From: an uncultured Christensenella sp.
GTDB lineage: Bacteria > Bacillota > Clostridia > Christensenellales > Pumilibacteraceae
DNA length: 26,908 nt
Reading direction: 5' to 3'
NCBI GenBank assembly: GCA_910577995.1
Contig: CAJTND010000012.1
Coordinates: 8,649 to 35,556 of the forward strand
In this document: positions 1,463 to 22,172 of the stretch, piece by piece
Layout of the letters: every line of letters begins with the position of its first letter
How positions within the stretch are numbered: position 1 is the first letter of the stretch
Notes under the pieces: model-generated
The model's input: only the letters and a program-made list of their open reading frames with translations
Told to the model about the DNA's origin: nothing
Database searches by the model: none
Position numbers and translations under genes: made by a program

Positions 1463-2208
<746 letters not shown>

Positions 2209-4876: not shown

Positions 4877-5045
4877 ATAGTGACAAAAAACGGAGACTCT
4901 TCGCTTGCGCTCAGAGTGACAAACGGGGGCGGCGGAGAGACGACAGAGAGACTCTTCGCTTGCGCTCAGAGTGACAAACGGGGGTGGCGGAGAGACGACA
5001 GAGAGACTCTTCGCTTATGCTCGGAGTAACAAACGGGGCGAGGAT
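4877..5045. repeat. 55-bp tandem repeat, about 3 copies
   Basis: Units at 4893-4947 and 4948-5002 differ at 1 of 55 positions (gagactcttcgcttgcgctcagagtgacaaacggggg[c/t]ggcggagagacgacaga). A degenerate third unit starts at 5003, and a partial unit (tagtgacaaaaaacg) precedes 4893. The period is not a multiple of 3. Confidence 0.85.
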
Positions 5046-15683: not shown

Positions 15684-15712
15684 TTGACAAGCCGCCGCGT
15701 TTATTGTATAAT
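15684..15712 (+). promoter_or_regulatory. Consensus SigA promoter driving the tRNA-Thr unit
   Basis: TTGACA (15684-15689), 17-bp spacer, TATAAT (15707-15712). It lies ~220 nt upstream of the mature tRNA 5' end. Confidence 0.7.
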
Positions 15713-15740
15713 GATTCTCGCGTGGAAAGTCGCCGTAAGC

Positions 15741-15930
15741 GACCGCCGCCTTGGTAATGGCAAACTGAATAAACATGCTGTTATGGCTCAGTCGGACCGC
15801 CACCTTGGTAAGGACGTCCTCAGCGGAGAAGAATCCACGAATTAAATAAATATGCTGTTATGGCTCAGTCGGACCGCCGCCTTGGTAAGGACGTCCTCAG
15901 CGGAGAAGAATCCACGAATTAAATAAACAT
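15741..15930 (+). repeat. Tandem 77-bp tRNA-Thr-derived units (two full pseudo-tRNA units plus one partial)
   Basis: Units 15777-15853 and 15854-15930 are 75/77 identical and in phase with the real tRNA at 15931. Each begins with the tRNA's first 19 nt (gctgttatggctcagtcgg) and keeps ccRccttggtaagg (anticodon stem/loop) and gaatcc, but lacks the D-stem 3' strand, T-arm and 3' acceptor strand. The partial unit at 15741-15776 keeps gaccgccgccttggtaa...aataaacat. Confidence 0.85.
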
Positions 15931-16006
15931 GCTGTTATGGCTCAGTCGGTAGAGCACCACCTTGGTAAGGTGGAGGTCCCGGGTTCGAATCCCGGTAACA
16001 GCTCCA
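15931..16006 (+). tRNA. tRNA-Thr (anticodon GGT), CCA encoded
   Basis: Cloverleaf read by hand: acceptor GCTGTTA/TAACAGC, D arm GCTC-AGTCGGTA-GAGC, anticodon arm CCACC-TTGGTAA-GGTGG, variable AGGTC, T arm CCGGG-TTCGAAT-CCCGG, discriminator T, then CCA. Confidence 0.95.
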
Positions 16007-16010
16007 CAAC

Positions 16011-16044
16011 GCCCTCCCTCTGCACTGCTTTGGGAGGGTGTTTC
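16011..16044 (+). terminator. Probable terminator of the tRNA unit
   Basis: gCCCTCCC-tctgcactgctt-tGGGAGGGtgttt directly after the CCA end. The T-run is short. Confidence 0.55.
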
Positions 16045-16085
16045 AAAATAAAATTATTTACGATCTACAAAGGACACAACACGGC

Positions 16086-17054
16086 ATGATGACAAAAGCG
16101 CAAAAGGATAAGCTGGTCAAGCTTTATTGTGAATTACAGGATGAAAAACATTATTACCGTAGCTTAAATAGCTTTAAGAAAGAGCAGGTCAAGCGGGGCG
16201 GTTATTGCGCCGACGCGCCGACGGAGGATCAAGTCGAGATGTGGCTCAGACTGCTCGGCGGCGACGGGTATGATCTCGTATATCTCGGCGCGATGCTTGC
16301 GTTACAGAAAGACGACATGCGCTATCTCGACGACGCGCTGTATACCGCTACTTCGATGATGCAATTCGCCTCGATGTCGTCGGGCTACGATCACTGCATT
16401 TATGCGTGGAATCTTTTGCCCGTGCTGCTGTCCGCCAACCGTTTCGACGATATAAAGCATATATTCCCGAAGGAAAACGGGCTGAGCAAAAACGGAATGA
16501 GAGTGTTGAAGCTCATTACGAATTTGGTCATGTATCTGTACTACGGCGAGGAAGAGTGGAGAGCGGAAGCGGTCGATGAGGGCAGAAGCTTCTCTAAGAA
16601 AGCGCCTATCGAGCAAAGAGCTATCGTCGACTGTCTTTTGAGCTTGGTCGATAAAGATCTCGACAGGTTTGCCGTCGAGCTCGATAACATATGCAAAGGC
16701 AAGCGTCGGGCGAGCGGATACGACGACAACAAGTTCACCAGACAGTTCCCGTTTTTTGCATTGGGGCTTTACAATTTTGCGCGGCGACTTTACGGCGAGG
16801 AGGTCGAAAATATCGCGCTTCCCGACGATGCGGGGGCGTTGATAGAGCTGCACGAATATCAAAAAGCCAACGGCTATGCGACGGGCAAGAATATCGCGGA
16901 TTTCAAAGAGACCGTTCCGCTCCTCGACGTGTTGCTCAATATCGAGCTGCCGCCCATGTACTTGGTGTTTGATAAAAGATACGGGTATACCGATATCGAC
17001 AGATACAAAAGCGACGTTACCGTCATAGCGCTGAAAAACCTCGTTCGGGACTGA
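16086..17054 (+). CDS. Hypothetical, predominantly alpha-helical protein (322 aa from the ATG at 16086; 338 aa if the GTG at 16038 is used); no family recognised
   Basis: A long ORF with no credible competing ORF and coding-like composition. The GTG at 16038 lies inside the tRNA terminator hairpin, so the ATG at 16086 is preferred (weak AAAGGA 12 nt upstream). Stops TGA TAG at 17052-17057. Confidence 0.7.
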   Translation: MMTKAQKDKLVKLYCELQDEKHYYRSLNSFKKEQVKRGGYCADAPTEDQVEMWLRLLGGDGYDLVYLGAMLALQKDDMRYLDDALYTATSMMQFASMSSGYDHCIYAWNLLPVLLSANRFDDIKHIFPKENGLSKNGMRVLKLITNLVMYLYYGEEEWRAEAVDEGRSFSKKAPIEQRAIVDCLLSLVDKDLDRFAVELDNICKGKRRASGYDDNKFTRQFPFFALGLYNFARRLYGEEVENIALPDDAGALIELHEYQKANGYATGKNIADFKETVPLLDVLLNIELPPMYLVFDKRYGYTDIDRYKSDVTVIALKNLVRD

Positions 17055-17060
17055 TAGGAT
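17036..17060. repeat. Left 25-bp direct repeat (att-like) bordering the AT-rich insertion
   Basis: aaacctcgttcgggactgataggat matches 19444-19468 (aaacttcgctcggggctgataggat) at 22/25, including an exact 10-mer ctgataggat. It covers the last 5 codons and the stop of the 16086..17054 ORF. Confidence 0.75.
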
Positions 17061-17147
17061 CGACTTGCCGATAGGTAAGTATGGAAATGATTTCCGCTTT
17101 CTTATGTCAAGATTATGTCTGCGGAATTTTTCTCATTCCGATTTTTC

Positions 17148-17365
17148 CTACTCTTGCTTATCAAGTGTACCGAAAGTATCTGTACTCTCGGTAGGAAAAT
17201 CGAAGCCGCTATCTAAAAGCACATTTAACGAAATGTGCCGCCGTGTTTCTTCGCGCTTGACTTTTTTTCGTATTTTTCCAACGGCTCGAACACCGCCGCA
17301 ACCTCGTCCGTTACTTCAATTTCTTCCGTATATCCGTTTGCAAATTTGTAGTGAATTATAGGCAT
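17148..17365 (-). pseudogene. Frameshifted remnant of a conjugative-element/phage-type small HTH (sigma-70 region-4-like) protein
   Basis: The minus-strand ATG at 17365 gives MPIIHYKFANGYTEEIEVTDEVAAVFEPLEKYEKKSSAKKHGGTFR*. A different frame continues ETRRHISLNVLLDSGFDFPTESTDTFGTLDKQE*. The Y-x-FANG-x-x-E-[IV]-EV ... RRH-x-SL pattern is what I recall from small HTH proteins of Firmicutes ICEs. The C-terminal HTH part is missing. Confidence 0.6.
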
Positions 17366-17453
17366 ATTATTTTTCTCTAAACCGAGCGAGCAAAGTGTTA
17401 AAACTTGAACTGCTACTTATTTCATTATCGGGGATAAACAAGTATTCAAAGCC

Positions 17454-18389
17454 TTATTGTATTGCGCGTTCTTTTTTTGCCATAACATCAGCATCGTTTA
17501 CTTTCCTCCTATCCTTCACTTCAACCAAATAATATTTATCTGCAGTTTCAACAACGAAGTCCGGTCTGTATTCGTGTCCGCGATTATATGTGATATTAAA
17601 TTGCTTCGCCGCAGGGCGCAACCATTGCAAAACCTCATCGGAATTATCGCAAGCAAGCGCAAATAATCTTTCGGGATTGCTGTCGAACTTAAAACACTTG
17701 GTGGCAGATTTTCTTGAACCGTTATACACGATAGTTTTTATGCTTTGACCTGTTTTAGGCGCAACAGCGATACTTTGCACTCCGTCTGTTATATCAACGT
17801 AATAACCCTGTATAATCGTTTCAATTTCTTGAACAATATCCACAATACCGTCATACTTAACTGCAAGATGTTGTATAAGTTGCGTTTTGAACTTATCAAT
17901 TATATCATGATACTCCATAATGCAAATACTGCGAACTTCTTGCTCGGTATATTTAGCTCGGTAATGCGTTAAAAACTGCATAACGATTTTTTGTATCAAT
18001 TTCAGGCATTTCTCGTAGTCGATTTCGTTTATTTTTCTAATCCAATCGATAAGCAATTTTTCAGGCTTTTCCGTATTGTAATCGATTACTCTACCTTTTA
18101 GCGTGTACGTTTCTTCCAACGAATCTATCATATTCTTAACCAATAAATCGTTACGGATAGGGACGTAGGTCATATTAGCTAAATCAAGGTCGAAATCCTG
18201 TATTATGTATTGTTCTTCACCGATTTGCTCGGTACGAATTTTCGGTATATACATCGTTTTTTCTTGAATACGGTCAACGATATTATTTTCCGAAACGCCG
18301 AACATCAATTCGATTATTTTTTGTAAGTCCGTCTCTTCACGAAATTGCTCACCGTGGTCGCGCTCAACCGCTAACCCCAAATTCTTGCT
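17454..18389 (-). pseudogene. C-terminal fragment of a type III restriction Res / DEAD-box-helicase-linked endonuclease (helicase part missing)
   Basis: The C-terminal block FDSNPERLFALACDNSDEVLQWLRPAAKQFNITYNRGHEYRPDFVVETADKYYLVEVKD is the PD-(D/E)xK nuclease signature found at the C-terminus of roughly 900-1000 aa Res-type enzymes. The frame opens only 8 nt after the fic stop, and the track start is a non-ATG (TTG) with no RBS. After the TAA at 17454 the same frame continues GFEYLFIPDNEI.... Confidence 0.6.
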
Positions 18390-18397
18390 TTAATTTA

Positions 18398-19288
18398 TCA
18401 GTATTGCACTTTGAAATAGTCAAGGTAAAGTTTGAATTTGTCTTGTGCCGTTAGGCAAGTATCACGCAAATAACCGCGTTCGGTCTGCCATTCCTTTAAG
18501 CCGCGATAGTAGAACAGTTTAAGCTCTTCGTCTATGATAAACGGCACGATATTGTATTTTAGGCACTCTTTGAATAAAAGCAGTCTGCCGATACGCCCGT
18601 TGCCGTCTTGGAATGGGTGAATACACTCGAATTTGTAATGAAAGTCCAAAAGGTCGTCGAACGTCTTTTCTTTCTTCTCGTTATACTCGAAAAGCAGTTC
18701 TTTCATTTTTTGGGAAACTTCTTCGGGCTGTGCTGTGAACATATCGCCGACGGTGTTCGGCAGGCGTTTGTAATCGCCGACTGCGAACCAATCCTGACGT
18801 GAGTCCGTCGTCCCGCTTTTCAACGTGCGGTGCAATTCTTTTATAAAGGTTTCCGTGATCGGCTTTTTTGCGTTTTCGATAATCAAGTCGATACACTTAA
18901 AGTGATTTGCCGTTTCTACGATGTCGTCAACCTTTACCGCGCCGCCGTCAATGCCGATCGTATTCGTTTCAAATATATAGCGCGTTTGGTCGTGCGTTAA
19001 GCGACTGCCTTCGATATGGTTGGAATTGTAGGTCAATTCAATTTGCACTTTATGATAAATGCCGCCCGAAAGTTTGGCGCGTCTTTCTGCCGTCAGCACT
19101 TCCAAAAGGGTAATCGGCAATTCAATTTTTTTATTTGCTCTGTCCGGCTTTTGCGCGTCTTCTGGTATATTCCAAGTCTTGCCTGTTAAAAATGCGCCGT
19201 CAACTTTTCCCAACGCGCAGTAGTTACGAACGCTCCGTTCCGATATATTCCATTTCTTTGCCGTTTCGGTTACAGACAGATATTTCAT
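18398..19288 (-). CDS. Fic family protein (AMPylase-type) with N-terminal HTH and an intramolecular inhibitory motif
   Basis: The ATG at 19288 has GAGGTG 8 nt upstream. The N-terminal HTH is MKYLSVTETAKKWNISERSVRNYCALGKV. The inhibitory (S/T)xxxE(G/N) motif is SNHIEG and the Fic core motif is HPFQDGNGRIGR. Confidence 0.92.
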   Translation of the reverse strand: MKYLSVTETAKKWNISERSVRNYCALGKVDGAFLTGKTWNIPEDAQKPDRANKKIELPITLLEVLTAERRAKLSGGIYHKVQIELTYNSNHIEGSRLTHDQTRYIFETNTIGIDGGAVKVDDIVETANHFKCIDLIIENAKKPITETFIKELHRTLKSGTTDSRQDWFAVGDYKRLPNTVGDMFTAQPEEVSQKMKELLFEYNEKKEKTFDDLLDFHYKFECIHPFQDGNGRIGRLLLFKECLKYNIVPFIIDEELKLFYYRGLKEWQTERGYLRDTCLTAQDKFKLYLDYFKVQY

Positions 19289-19309
19289 TGCAATAGCACC
19301 TCGTTTATA

Positions 19310-19338
19310 AGTATAGCACATTATCGGCAAAAAAGCAA
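19310..19338 (-). promoter_or_regulatory. Candidate promoter of fic
   Basis: On the minus strand: TTGCTT (19338-19333), 17-bp spacer, TATACT (19315-19310), preceded by TGc (extended -10). Confidence 0.45.
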
Positions 19339-19443
19339 TAGCAAGAACAGCAAAAACGCAATATTTTTGCCGTTGTCGGAAAGAAAAATGTGTTTGCTAC
19401 TTCCGTTAGACCCGTTAATATTTTTAGCTCCGATCGCTCTCCG

Positions 19444-19468
19444 AAACTTCGCTCGGGGCTGATAGGAT
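19444..19468. repeat. Right 25-bp direct repeat (att-like)
   Basis: See 17036-17060. In the same register this copy reads N F A R G TGA TAG, so the double stop is preserved. Confidence 0.75.
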
Positions 19469-19487
19469 AACTGCTTTATTAAACGAA

Positions 19488-19508
19488 ACACCCGATCGGG
19501 TGTTTTTT
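19488..19508 (+). terminator. Orphan rho-independent terminator (probably the original terminator of the 16086..17054 gene)
   Basis: ACACCC-gatc-GGGTGT followed by TTTTTT on the + strand. There is no + strand gene within 2.4 kb upstream, yet it sits 20 nt after the right direct repeat. Confidence 0.75.
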
Positions 19509-19531
19509 CGTAAATGTATTTTTTATGCGGT

Positions 19532-19560
19532 GTTGACATTACGGCGCGGACGTGGTATGA
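19532..19560 (+). promoter_or_regulatory. SigA-type promoter
   Basis: TTGACA (19532-19537), 17-bp spacer, TGgTATGAT (19552-19560). Confidence 0.6.
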
Positions 19561-19591
19561 TGAGCGTATATTCGATGCGGAGGCGGGGGAT

Positions 19592-20002
19592 ATGCGAAAA
19601 AGGATTCTGATACCTATATTTGCGATAGGGATAGCGGAGGCGGTCGCTTTTGCCGTTTTGAGCTTTGTCGATATTATCCCCGCGCGCTCGGTACTGCCCG
19701 GGCTTGACGCGAACGGTAACGAGATATTTATTGAGCGGACTTATTGGTTCTCGATATACGAGCTGATGTGCGCCGACGGTACGCTCGGCTCGACGGTGAT
19801 ATTCGCAATGTCGGGCGCGGTGTACGGGCTGACGGCGGTCGGGTGCGCGTCGGGGATATATCTTTGCGCGTCGGCGCGCGGACAAAAGCTCGGCAAAGCT
19901 TTTTTCGGCGCGTGCGTTTCCATGCTGATATCCGTCGGCTTGTCCGTGCTGCTGTTTCTCGTTTGCCGTATCGCGGCGTTCGGATTGACGCCGTGTTTTT
20001 AG
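19592..20002 (+). CDS. Small integral membrane protein (136 aa, about 4 TM); function unknown
   Basis: The ATG at 19592 has GGAGGCGGGGG upstream. The track start at 19514 would overlap the promoter. The sequence contains hydrophobic segments. Confidence 0.6.
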   Translation: MRKRILIPIFAIGIAEAVAFAVLSFVDIIPARSVLPGLDANGNEIFIERTYWFSIYELMCADGTLGSTVIFAMSGAVYGLTAVGCASGIYLCASARGQKLGKAFFGACVSMLISVGLSVLLFLVCRIAAFGLTPCF

Positions 20003-20022
20003 AAAGAAGTTTTTTTAACTCA

Positions 20023-20054
20023 AAAGACCGTCCGTTAAATCGGGCGGTCTTTTA
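20023..20054. terminator. Bidirectional terminator between convergent genes
   Basis: aaaAGACCGTCCG-ttaaat-CGGGCGGTCTtttaa, with one G-U pair. Confidence 0.75.
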
Positions 20055-20074
20055 AGTTCCGAAGGCAAGATCGG

Positions 20075-20233
20075 TCAGTCTATCTCGAAGTGGCTTCCGC
20101 CGTGCTGCGTCGGAGGCATTCTGTTGCCTTTCTTGACGCGAACCGTGCCGACGACGCGACCGTTAGGCGATACGACATTGTATTCGCCGGTCTTGGGCGC
20201 GATCTCGCCCGATGTCAACTTGTTGGATTTCAT
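20075..20233 (-). CDS. YjzC-like small protein (52 aa), absent from the ORF track (below its size cut-off)
   Basis: Minus strand: GAGGAGGG, 6 nt, then ATG. The product is MKSNKLTSGEIAPKTGEYNVVSPNGRVVGTVRVKKGNRMPPTQHGGSHFEID. The G-x-x-AP-x-x-G-x-Y ... G-x-x-x-PPT pattern resembles the YjzC family (from memory). Confidence 0.6.
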   Translation of the reverse strand: MKSNKLTSGEIAPKTGEYNVVSPNGRVVGTVRVKKGNRMPPTQHGGSHFEID

Positions 20234-20346
20234 CTTGATCCCTCCTCGTATTTAGCTTGCGCCGTTCCGCCGAGTTTATACGTTTTTTGTTCGATTTTGT
20301 CGAATCATATTGCCTGCCGTGCGCGCTATTTACACGGTCAAAAATG

Positions 20347-20375
20347 TTGACAAATCAACAAATTTGCTGTATAAT
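20347..20375 (+). promoter_or_regulatory. Consensus SigA promoter
   Basis: TTGACA (20347-20352), 17-bp spacer, TATAAT (20370-20375). Confidence 0.65.
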
Positions 20376-20409
20376 GGCGATACGGTGAAATGACCCGAAG
20401 GAGAGAGCG

Positions 20410-21129
20410 GTGAAAAAGATATTCTTTACAGTCAACATAATACTTATCGTCGCGGTGCTTATCGGCGACGTATGCTTTACGGCGCTTGGGGGACTGCCGT
20501 TAAAGGGCGTTACGAGCGCTGGGTTCGTTATCCTCGGCGCGGTCGATCTCGCTTATGCTTTCCTGACGCATGCGGAAAACAGAAAATATCCCGTCGTGAT
20601 GCTCGTCGGGCTTGCGTTCGCAATGGCGGGCGACGTCGTTTTGAATATCCATTTTATAGGCGGCGCGATACTGTTTGCCGTCGGGCACGTGTTCTACTTC
20701 GCGGCGTACTGCTTTTTGCACAGGTTCAAGCCGATTGACCTCGTTTACGGCGCGGCGCTGTTCGTGCCGTCGGTGCTGTTGATAACGCTCGCGCCGATAT
20801 TCGATTTCGGCGGCGTCGCTATGGAAATAGTGTGCGTGGTATACGCCGCCGTTATTTCCTGTATGGTCGGTAAGGCGGTTTCCAACCTCGTCGCGCAAAG
20901 GAGCTTGCTCAATATAGTATTGACCGTCGGCAGCTGTCTTTTCTTCTTTTCCGATCTCATGCTGCTGTTCAACGTGTTCGGCGACCTGCCGAGGATAGTG
21001 GATATACTTTGTCTTGCGACGTATTATCCCGCGCAGTGTCTGCTCGCTTTTTCCGTGTTTGTCGGCGCGAACGCGAATATGGAAGATCGGGCGAACGACT
21101 TTATCGTCAGGGAAGCGCCGGAGCTTTAA
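20410..21129 (+). CDS. YhhN/TMEM86 family (lysoplasmalogenase-like) membrane protein
   Basis: GTG start with AAGGAGAG 5 nt upstream. Eight hydrophobic segments, with the two conserved acidic motifs AMAGDVVLN and FFFSDLMLLF typical of YhhN proteins. Confidence 0.8.
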   Translation: MKKIFFTVNIILIVAVLIGDVCFTALGGLPLKGVTSAGFVILGAVDLAYAFLTHAENRKYPVVMLVGLAFAMAGDVVLNIHFIGGAILFAVGHVFYFAAYCFLHRFKPIDLVYGAALFVPSVLLITLAPIFDFGGVAMEIVCVVYAAVISCMVGKAVSNLVAQRSLLNIVLTVGSCLFFFSDLMLLFNVFGDLPRIVDILCLATYYPAQCLLAFSVFVGANANMEDRANDFIVREAPEL

Positions 21130-21189
21130 CGGAAGAACGGCGATACTCTTACACTTTGTTATCGTAAAGCTTCTATTTAACAAAATAAT

Positions 21190-21225
21190 AAGCCGTCGTC
21201 TTTTGGAAAAAGGCGGCGGCTTTTC
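21190..21225. terminator. Terminator hairpin between convergent genes (better on the + transcript)
   Basis: AGCCGTCGTC-ttttggaaaaa-GGCGGCGGCTttt. The + strand RNA has two G-U pairs; the minus RNA has two C-A mismatches. Confidence 0.65.
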
Positions 21226-21243
21226 GGTAGTAGGGACAGCTCC

Positions 21244-21699
21244 TCAGTTATGCAGGAATCGGCGCATTTCGTCGATGTTTTTTTGCTGTACCCAAAGCAG
21301 CTTATACCCGACGTTTTTTATATCGTCGGCTACGTCGGCGAAATCGGAGAGCTTGCTCGTGCATTCGGTCACGCCCTTTGTCGTGCCGTCGATTATCATT
21401 TTGGCGACCTCGCTGTCGGCGGTGTCGTCGGATATCTTCATGTCTATCATCATGCCAGCCATCTTGCGCACGACCTTGCCGACGGGCTTCGGGTCTTCGC
21501 CGCGTTTTTCGAGCTTTTCGGTTATCTGCGCGCAAACGTCGGAATAATCGAAAATATCCTGTTCGACTGCCTCCCGCAGTTCGCCCGGTCCGATATTGCC
21601 GTTGACGTGCTCGAGCGTGTCGCGTCCCATTTGCGCTGCCTGGTGAAGTTGTTTCAAAAACTCTATCTCGCGGTCGAGTTTTGCTTGCTTTTCGTCCAT
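21244..21699 (-). CDS. Hypothetical helical-bundle protein (151 aa), possibly DUF2383/ferritin-like four-helix bundle
   Basis: The ATG at 21699 (MDEKQAKLDREIEFLKQL...) has AAGGAG 9 nt upstream. The 225-aa track ORF's N-terminal extension is AT-rich junk overlapping the rpoB promoter. The family call is tentative. Confidence 0.6.
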   Translation of the reverse strand: MDEKQAKLDREIEFLKQLHQAAQMGRDTLEHVNGNIGPGELREAVEQDIFDYSDVCAQITEKLEKRGEDPKPVGKVVRKMAGMMIDMKISDDTADSEVAKMIIDGTTKGVTECTSKLSDFADVADDIKNVGYKLLWVQQKNIDEMRRFLHN

Positions 21700-21887
21700 T
21701 TCGTGGTTCTCCTTAGATCGTACTTGCTTTATTGTGCGCAGATAACCGTTTTTCATTATAGTGTCTAAAATTTTGAGCACGGCTTTCCTCTTTCTTATGC
21801 GCGAGCCGCGAGGCGCGGCAGCCGTCGGCGCGGTTTGCTGTCTATACAAAATATCAAAAATAAAACAAAAAATATATATAAATTCAT

Positions 21888-21916
21888 TTGACAATGTTGA
21901 CAAGTCGTGATACAAT
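21888..21916 (+). promoter_or_regulatory. SigA-type promoter of rpoBC
   Basis: TTGACA (21888-21893), 17-bp spacer, TGaTACAAT (21908-21916). It leaves a ~250-nt untranslated leader before rpoB. Confidence 0.6.
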
Positions 21917-22172
21917 ATCAAAATGCGTTAGTGTGCCTAATTGTAGCCACCCGTAACGGCGGTTGCGAACGTAACAAGCGCAATAAGTCTTTGAAAAAGA
22001 GATCGTATAGGTTGCTGTTCACAATCCAAAGCGAATATTCGGACTTACGGAGTTAGGCGAGGGCTTTGCTCCGCTTTTGTGCGTTCGGTCTGTTCGGGAC
22101 GCGTCAAAGGCGGCGTTTTGTCGTCGAATATTGCTTTTTTTACTATAAAATAACCTCTAACAGGAGTTCTTA

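Follow-up and report, generated by a model that had tools for sequence, protein, structure and literature searches.

A short tandem array of tRNA-Thr(GGU) pseudogenes, variable in copy number and probably dispensable, in the leader of a Christensenellaceae tRNA gene

Why would a single bacterial tRNA gene be preceded, within its own transcription unit, by a series of repeats that each resemble part of it? The question is raised by a 26,908-nt stretch of DNA from an uncultured Christensenella sp. (assembly GCA_910577995.1, contig CAJTND010000012.1, positions 8,649 to 35,556 of the forward strand; this whole stretch is referred to as the window, and positions are counted from its first letter). 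The window is chromosomal DNA of a GC-rich Clostridia-type bacterium, carrying metG, tatD, spmA/spmB, rpoB, and ABC transporter genes, and ARAGORN finds only one tRNA gene in it, a tRNA-Thr(ggt) at 15931-16006. The initial annotation of the locus described the repeats upstream as tRNA-derived 77-bp units in which nothing is left of the tRNA but the 5' acceptor/D segment and the anticodon loop, and listed as possible explanations a neutral decaying tandem duplication, processing or stability elements for the precursor, and small RNAs or decoys presenting the Thr anticodon loop. Our analysis indicates that the leader is probably a short tandem array of tRNA-Thr(GGU) pseudogenes that varies in copy number, is co-transcribed with the functional gene, and has no required function; the array is most likely a dispensable by-product of recombination and not a new RNA device.

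The functional gene (15931..16006, plus strand, CCA encoded) is recognized by both ARAGORN and Rfam model RF00005 (75.6 bits, E = 1.6e-16) and has a folding z-score of -2.86 against shuffled sequences. Tandem Repeats Finder (TRF) reports a period of 77 bp over 15768-15970 (2.6 copies, 92% matches), and a repeat search gives the same phasing, in agreement with the annotated layout of four in-phase units of which the real tRNA is the last. Two pseudo-tRNA-Thr units of 77 bp, U1 (15777..15853) and U2 (15854..15930), both on the plus strand and delimited by TRF, the repeat search, and tRNA alignment, differ from each other at 2 positions, and the annotated identity of 75/77 was reproduced. The first 19 nt of the tRNA, GCTGTTATGGCTCAGTCGG, occur exactly at 15777, 15854, and 15931, and the anticodon stem/loop string CCRCCTTGGTAAKG occurs four times (15746, 15800, 15877, and 15957), the expected number being 0 for each; the statements that the units keep the first 19 nt exactly, and that the anticodon string recurs even in a partial unit, both hold. 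This truncated unit, U0, lies in the 5' leader (15719..15776, plus strand; sequence reading and string match), which is ordered as a hairpin, GTCGC-CGTAA-GCGAC (15729-15743), followed by CCGCCTTGGTAATG (15746-15759) and then the tail GCAAACTGAATAAACAT. U0 is complete in two close relatives (L072 and L059, introduced below), relative to which the U0 of the window is internally rearranged.

What the units are made of becomes apparent when they are aligned with the gene. They are arranged head-to-tail and in phase, and are homologous to the adjacent gene along their length, with a period of 77 bp in the window and 86-115 bp in relatives; U1 is made up of a decayed copy of the gene and the 14-nt A/T-rich 5' flank that belongs to the next unit. 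Over positions 1-37, the units depart from the gene in the MAFFT alignment only by a 3-nt deletion in the D loop, a single fixed substitution, and one or two sites with A/G variation. Within the D arm, GTCG---GACC of the unit aligns to GTCGGTAGAGC of the tRNA, i.e., the 3-nt deletion together with G24C (GCTC-AGTCG-GACC in the unit and GCTC-AGTCGGTA-GAGC in the gene), and not the loss of the D-stem 3' strand that had been annotated. 3' of the anticodon loop, the likeness to the tRNA is reduced to scattered remnants (GTCC, CGG, and GAATC), and the longer units of L001 also keep an ACAG remnant of the 3' acceptor strand. Because T-loop remnants and, in the relatives with longer units, 3' acceptor remnants are still present, the units are whole decayed gene copies joined to the gene's own A/T-rich 5' flank, with a polar pattern of decay, and not tRNA half-mimics. 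The annotated view that nothing beyond the 5' acceptor/D segment and the anticodon loop remains is inaccurate: the 3' half is degraded, but the copies align over their full length.

To place the array among relatives, the shortened-D-arm signature was scanned across 185,579 GTDB species representatives, and the pattern was found in two of them, both Christensenellaceae metagenome-assembled genomes (MAGs): L001 (contig CAJUQF010000017.1), with three units of 91-115 nt, and L002, with one unit. Further loci came from metagenome and protein-anchored look-ups, and the loci are coded L001-L110. Among these, L059, L072, and L073 form the window's own species group (SpmA 95% identical for L072 and L073, not measured for L059), L074-L077 are more distant (SpmA 88-90% identical, one unit), and L101-L110 belong to a further lineage. 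At least five Christensenellaceae lineages have a homologous array, of 0-3 units, in front of this tRNA, and all array loci have the same promoter module on the 5' side and the same tRNA sequence on the 3' side; the tRNA-Thr sequence of the window is identical in L002, L059, L072, L074, and L101. The array is homologous across these lineages and taxonomically narrow. One metagenome pattern, GCTCAGTCGGAN{3,10}CTTGGTAAGG, proved too loose, as 67 of its 69 matches were ordinary tRNA-Thr genes with a GGAAGAGC D-loop; these 67 loci were used solely as a control set, and only one of these unrelated tRNA-Thr(GGU) loci has an extra copy, which is a second tRNA-like copy. A described equivalent of the array was sought in the literature, and none was found.

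Whether the units are needed can be judged from L101-L110, ten contigs that all encode an identical 129-aa neighbouring protein and differ in the leader. L101 and L104 have one 86-nt unit; L103 and L109 have an additional unit that is more diverged, with several substitutions within head positions 1-26; in L106, L107, and L108 there are zero units and the leader is joined directly to the tRNA; and L105, which also lacks units, has a split in the tRNA itself. Over 1 kb, the flanks of L101 and L106 are identical at 1001 of 1004 positions (99.7%), and the sole indel is the 86-bp unit, bounded by a 22-bp direct repeat, TATGCTGTTATGGCTCAGTCGG; this is the footprint of an unequal crossover or of slippage between the unit head and the gene head. 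Assembly collapse is an unlikely cause of the zero-unit alleles, because the final assembly k-mers (k119 and k141) greatly exceed the 22-bp repeat in length. Within the window's own species group, the 5' flank is ~99% identical between the window and L072/L059, and the arrays differ by indels of 54 nt and ~16 nt and by unit number. Given the zero-unit alleles and the within-species indels, the units appear to be dispensable and structurally unstable on a within-species timescale. The initial annotation had itself named relatives with a single tRNA-Thr and no upstream units, or neutral-rate evolution with random indels, as observations that would speak for a decaying duplication; L106-L108 are such relatives, and the unit-specific sequence evolves at an approximately neutral rate with many indels, as described next.

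Fourfold sites of spmA and spmB served as the neutral yardstick, and their identity to the window is 0.87 for L072, 0.68 for L074, and 0.59 for the L001 genome. Among the window, L074, L001, and L101 lineages, unit positions 1-37 are identical at 36-37 of 37 sites, the unit-specific positions 38-47 at 7-10 of 10 (4-7 of 10 in pairs with L002), and the remainder of the unit at 30-52%. Conservation beyond the neutral expectation is confined to the part that is identical to the gene, a pattern predicted by concerted evolution with a strongly constrained donor and not by selection on a unit-specific RNA. At two A/G positions, sister strains have now the state of the tRNA and now that of U0, and such patchy sharing is typical of gene conversion; the substitutions in L103 and L109 also show that unit heads can decay. 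With 0-3 copies among close relatives, a clean one-unit indel, and an approximately neutral rate at unit-specific positions, the neutral decaying tandem duplication is the listed explanation that the data favour.

Could the units nevertheless work as part of the precursor RNA, i.e., as Thr anticodon-loop decoys or sponges (for an anticodon nuclease, threonyl-tRNA synthetase (ThrRS), or a T-box leader), as processed small RNAs, or as alternative partners of the acceptor strand? In favour of this, the head and the anticodon-loop string are kept across lineages whose synonymous divergence is near saturation, and CCTTGGTAA occurs in all units. Furthermore, in the predicted equilibrium fold of 15719-16044 (ViennaRNA), the tRNA 3' acceptor strand pairs with the identical 5' strand of U1 (probability 0.62) or U2 (0.33) and not with its own (0.01), and the mispaired fold is favoured over the native cloverleaf by only 2.5 kcal/mol. 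This predicted mispairing would more naturally represent a small folding cost than a function, and such a cost could help explain the loss of units. A functional tRNA spacer also has a precedent in the 3' external transcribed spacer (3'ETS) of leuZ, a conserved small RNA (sRNA) sponge with defined complementary targets (PMC8166272). Like the 3'ETS, the leader in the window is a by-product of a tRNA precursor for which an action in trans is conceivable; unlike it, the units can be absent without apparent need for them and give no signal of structure or of a target.

Examined as RNAs, the units have little in common with a tRNA. ARAGORN does not call them, RF00005 matches only 15931-16006 even at E<=10, and Rfam 15 at E<=10 gives, besides the tRNA itself, only chance-level matches. 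The units lack the 3' acceptor strand, their T-stem pairing is unconserved, and two central mismatches interrupt the anticodon stem; canonical tRNA status was rejected for the 77-bp units, with no cloverleaf call and unpaired stems. As the anticodon stem is down to 2 bp next to the two mismatches, no mimic of the anticodon arm is predicted. Folding stability does not exceed that of dinucleotide shuffles, with z-scores of -1.4 to +0.8 over the units examined (+0.31 for U1 and +0.64 for U2, as opposed to -2.86 for the tRNA). For neither a candidate long-range helix around the anticodon string (CCGC/GCGG) nor a candidate T-arm-like hairpin (GCGGA/UCCGC) is covariation above that of shuffles, and an apparent compensatory change in L001 (CCAC/GUGG) is cancelled out by L059 and L074, which have A-C mismatches. 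The RNAalifold consensus is weak (-7.4 kcal/mol, 0 compensatory pairs). A structured cis-regulatory leader of the riboswitch or T-box type was likewise rejected, with no Rfam family, z-scores near 0, and no compensatory pairs. The palindrome GGACGTCC was considered as a protein-binding site and discarded, as it is not conserved (relatives have GGGCGTCC, GGACGTTCC, or GGGAGACC). Taken with zero-unit alleles of the same species that have otherwise identical flanks, with copy number and unit architecture that differ among close strains, and with unit-specific nucleotides that are not conserved beyond the neutral rate, these results make a functional precursor RNA unlikely; both the processing or stability elements and the anticodon decoys suggested in the initial annotation find no support here, the units having no tRNA-like score, no excess stability, and no covariation, and being dispensable. 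The string ACGTCCTCAGCGGAGAAGAATCC in the window allele is a candidate probe target for unit-derived RNA.

A different origin is suggested by the point at which the strong identity between unit and tRNA stops, just past the anticodon loop, where the U0 of the window breaks too. The units might be attL-type scars of integrase recombination in the anticodon loop, as in tRNA-dependent lysogeny, amplified by head-to-head crossover. The resident tRNA-Thr(GGU) of two relatives is indeed split past ...CCTTGGTAAG by the same foreign sequence (TATTTACTTAACCAGT...), in L001 at 2596-2835 and in L105 ~100-160 nt after the end of a repressor gene, at the contig end. In L001, a different, complete tRNA-Thr(GGU) follows 125 nt beyond the split; its first 43 nt are found exactly in 7 IMG/VR contigs, whose full-length copies show one difference. 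The layout agrees with the phenomenon described in actinobacteriophages, in which a promoter-proximal 5' portion of a host tRNA ends at a break in the anticodon loop and is followed by a same-isotype replacement tRNA (Guerrero-Bustamante & Hatfull, 2024, PMC10865867). It suggests that integration of this tRNA-dependent kind, described until now in those phages, takes place in gut Clostridia as well. When the element splitting the tRNA of L001 and L105 was sought, pattern scans of IMG/VR and phage BLAST gave tRNA matches only. In L074 (~2060-2110, minus strand; also in L075-L077), there is moreover an attachment-type (att-type) tRNA 3' fragment, GAGCACCACCTTGGTAAGGACGTCCCGGGTTCGGTCGGTAACAGCTCCA, 60 bp past the tRNA terminator, which shares the derived GGACGTCC with the upstream pseudo-units; the sharing suggests common descent of, or exchange between, the att fragment and the units. 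Overall, the tRNA-Thr locus is a recombination hot spot.

The units of the window, in contrast, bear few of the marks of such events. Displaced att-type tRNA fragments comprise the 3' part of the gene from the crossover point, with a mobile element and its integrase in between (Islander, PMC4383910). The array resembles them in having partial tRNA copies beside an intact gene at a recombination-prone locus, with a genuine case 3' of the same tRNA in L074, and differs from them in that such fragments are single 3' parts beyond an element, whereas the units are tandem 5' parts between promoter and gene, with no element in between. They keep positions 1-37, lose the 3' part, and abut the gene, and no repeat of the tRNA 3' end occurs elsewhere in the window; the annotated statement that this is not the usual att-type duplication of a tRNA 3' end is upheld. 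The attL arrangement of tRNA-dependent lysogeny is found in L001 and in part in L105, whereas the window has no inserted element or other foreign DNA in the leader, no second or replacement tRNA, and no integrase domain among the open reading frames scanned. Its units are full-length decayed copies: the ordered T-loop remnants (GAATC) and the 3' acceptor remnants in L001 point to whole copies and not to 5' halves on foreign DNA, all units carry the 5' flank of the gene itself and are in phase, which is what simple tandem duplication would give, and an integrase would leave the D-loop deletion unexplained. We regard integrase scars as an improbable origin of the array as a whole. An integrase acting in the anticodon loop could have had a part in forming the ancestral unit, since the strong homology ends at the same point, but simple tandem duplication followed by decay is the more economical origin, because the units retain, in order, remnants of the T loop and the acceptor strand, together with the 5' flank of the gene itself.

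The 3-nt D-loop deletion has one further consequence: it is in frame and removes the TAG that closes the corresponding frame in the real tRNA. Each unit could on this ground encode a Thr-codon-rich leader peptide (ATG CTG TTA TGG CTC AGT CGG ACC GCC ACC ..., 24 codons) that senses the supply of tRNA-Thr(GGU), and the frame with its ACC codons is open in the standard units of the window, L072, L074, and L001. It has no Shine-Dalgarno sequence 5' of the ATG, however, a TAA stands at codon 4 in the first units of both L001 and L002 (L001_U1 and L002_U1), the differences between units are non-synonymous (ACC/GCC and ACG/GCG), and an open frame of 21 codons would arise by chance in about one of three cases. 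We consider the leader peptide extremely improbable, and the ATG frame of 24 codons at 15775-15930, lacking a Shine-Dalgarno sequence and unconserved, was judged coincidental.

Returning to a pseudogene array, the following history would account for it. An ancestral duplication of the gene together with ~14 nt of its 5' flank would have put an extra copy downstream of the promoter and ahead of the functional gene. As the alignment shows, this copy then lost its function through the 3-nt D-loop deletion and G24C, and through disruption of the 3' strand of the anticodon stem, the T arm, and the 3' acceptor strand. Unequal crossover or replication slippage between identical heads (the 5' flank and the first 19 nt) has subsequently made the array grow, shrink, and reshuffle, as the one-unit indels show. 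Judging from the rate differences, exchange with the constrained gene, by crossover or gene conversion, would keep positions 1-37 identical to the tRNA while the rest drifts neutrally. The units are presumably co-transcribed from a single strong promoter, and, as in tRNA maturation generally, cleavage by RNase P between 15930 and 15931 would free the tRNA, after which the A/U-rich, unstructured leader is presumably degraded.

Several observations weigh against an array without any role. It appears to have persisted in at least five lineages that are near synonymous saturation, which is long for useless bacterial DNA. CCTTGGTAA is intact in every unit seen, including units with a mutated D-loop region, and the unit-defining deletion and C24, located between two tRNA-identical blocks, were never erased by conversion in the ~12 units examined. 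At 19 nt and 14 nt, the blocks of homology are also short for RecA-mediated exchange. Finally, most of the related loci came to light through searches aimed at the unit, which biases the frequency of unit-free genomes. Because of the long persistence, the intact CCTTGGTAA, and the surviving D-loop deletion, we leave a small chance to some conditional role of the units. In one specific form, which we think quite unlikely, the units would be conditionally useful by competing for the tRNA 3' acceptor strand and so delaying maturation, or as decoys for a reader of the anticodon loop (an anticodon nuclease, an integrase that uses it as core site, or ThrRS), and the polymorphism would reflect balancing or fluctuating selection.

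The transcription unit to which the array belongs begins with a sigma-70 promoter at 15684..15712 (plus strand), where the TTGACA and TATAAT boxes, separated by a 17-nt spacer, match the consensus at 12 of 12 positions; transcription is predicted to start near 15719. The module AAAAAGATTGACAA...TATAAT is kept 5' of the homologous arrays in L001, L002, L072, L074, and L101, and no internal promoters were found when the unit tails were searched for them. On the 3' side, the hairpin annotated at 16011..16044 (plus strand; CCCTCCC...GGGAGGG core) forms an 11-bp stem in the predicted fold and is kept in L072, but the terminator scan did not flag it (loop of 13 nt, weak T-run), whereas other relatives have canonical terminators at this place; the hairpin probably acts as a weak intrinsic terminator or as a 3' processing/stability stem.

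The surroundings of the tRNA are variable as well. The array lies 5' of spmA in the clade of the window and elsewhere in L001, L002, and L101. In related lineages, the slot upstream of spmA holds a tRNA-Val(CAC) or tRNA-Glu(TTC) (L080 at 1798-1872, L092 at 1282-1356, and L082 at 1794-1868), and in L078, L084, L087, L091, and L093 it holds no tRNA; the tRNA-promoter module at this position appears to have been replaced repeatedly. SpmA-anchored synteny is informative only for the closest clade, as distant relatives differ at that slot, and a homologue search with the protein encoded upstream in L002 returned only the query itself. 3' of the tRNA, a low-GC stretch of the window (16000-22000) includes a gene pair at 17454-19330 (minus strand) in a segment of 39-42% GC. 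One protein of the pair has a C-terminal region like that of Type III restriction enzymes, and the other is a Fic-family protein matching the PADLOC candidate defence family PDC-S04 (366 bits). L072 appears to lack the pair, as none of its four called genes from the tRNA to YhhN is ~308/310 aa long, a comparison of gene sizes and not a direct alignment. The segment looks like a small variable defence islet, and L074 also has a Fic gene adjoining its tRNA-Thr. Elsewhere in the window, a 55-bp tandem repeat (4893-5038; 2.7 copies, 94% matches) lies in the intergenic region past an FtsX-permease gene.

Among known arrangements, tandem bacterial tRNA genes with pseudogene copies, such as the tRNA-Pro/His cluster of Photobacterium phosphoreum and the tandem tRNA operons of Firmicutes, evolve by unequal crossing-over. 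The array shares with them the in-phase copies of gene plus spacer, some of them degenerate, the indels of one period, and the co-transcription. It differs in that there is a single functional copy, which is always the last, that the decay is polar (the 5' 37 nt kept, the 3' half lost), and that pseudogenes make up the entire 5' leader. In the tyrT operon of E. coli, 178-bp repeats lie downstream of the tRNA gene and carry the tRNA 3' end, and the rtT RNA released from them has been detected. Here, too, tandem repeats with a tRNA-derived segment are co-transcribed with a tRNA gene, whereas the units lie 5' of it and no comparable RNA is known from them. Among tRNA pseudogene arrays, that of the window is unusual in that it fills the 5' leader and is conserved in a polar fashion.

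The finding carries little mechanistic weight, and it advises caution in annotation and in screens for tRNA-like leaders, where polar conservation can mimic functional constraint. A by-product outside the window is of more interest, namely the tRNA-Thr that is split in two Christensenellaceae lineages, with a replacement tRNA in L001. The array itself offers a clear case of concerted evolution at a bacterial tRNA locus, in which the pseudogenes of the leader would stay gene-like only where exchange with the gene is possible, and in which whole units are gained and lost within one species.

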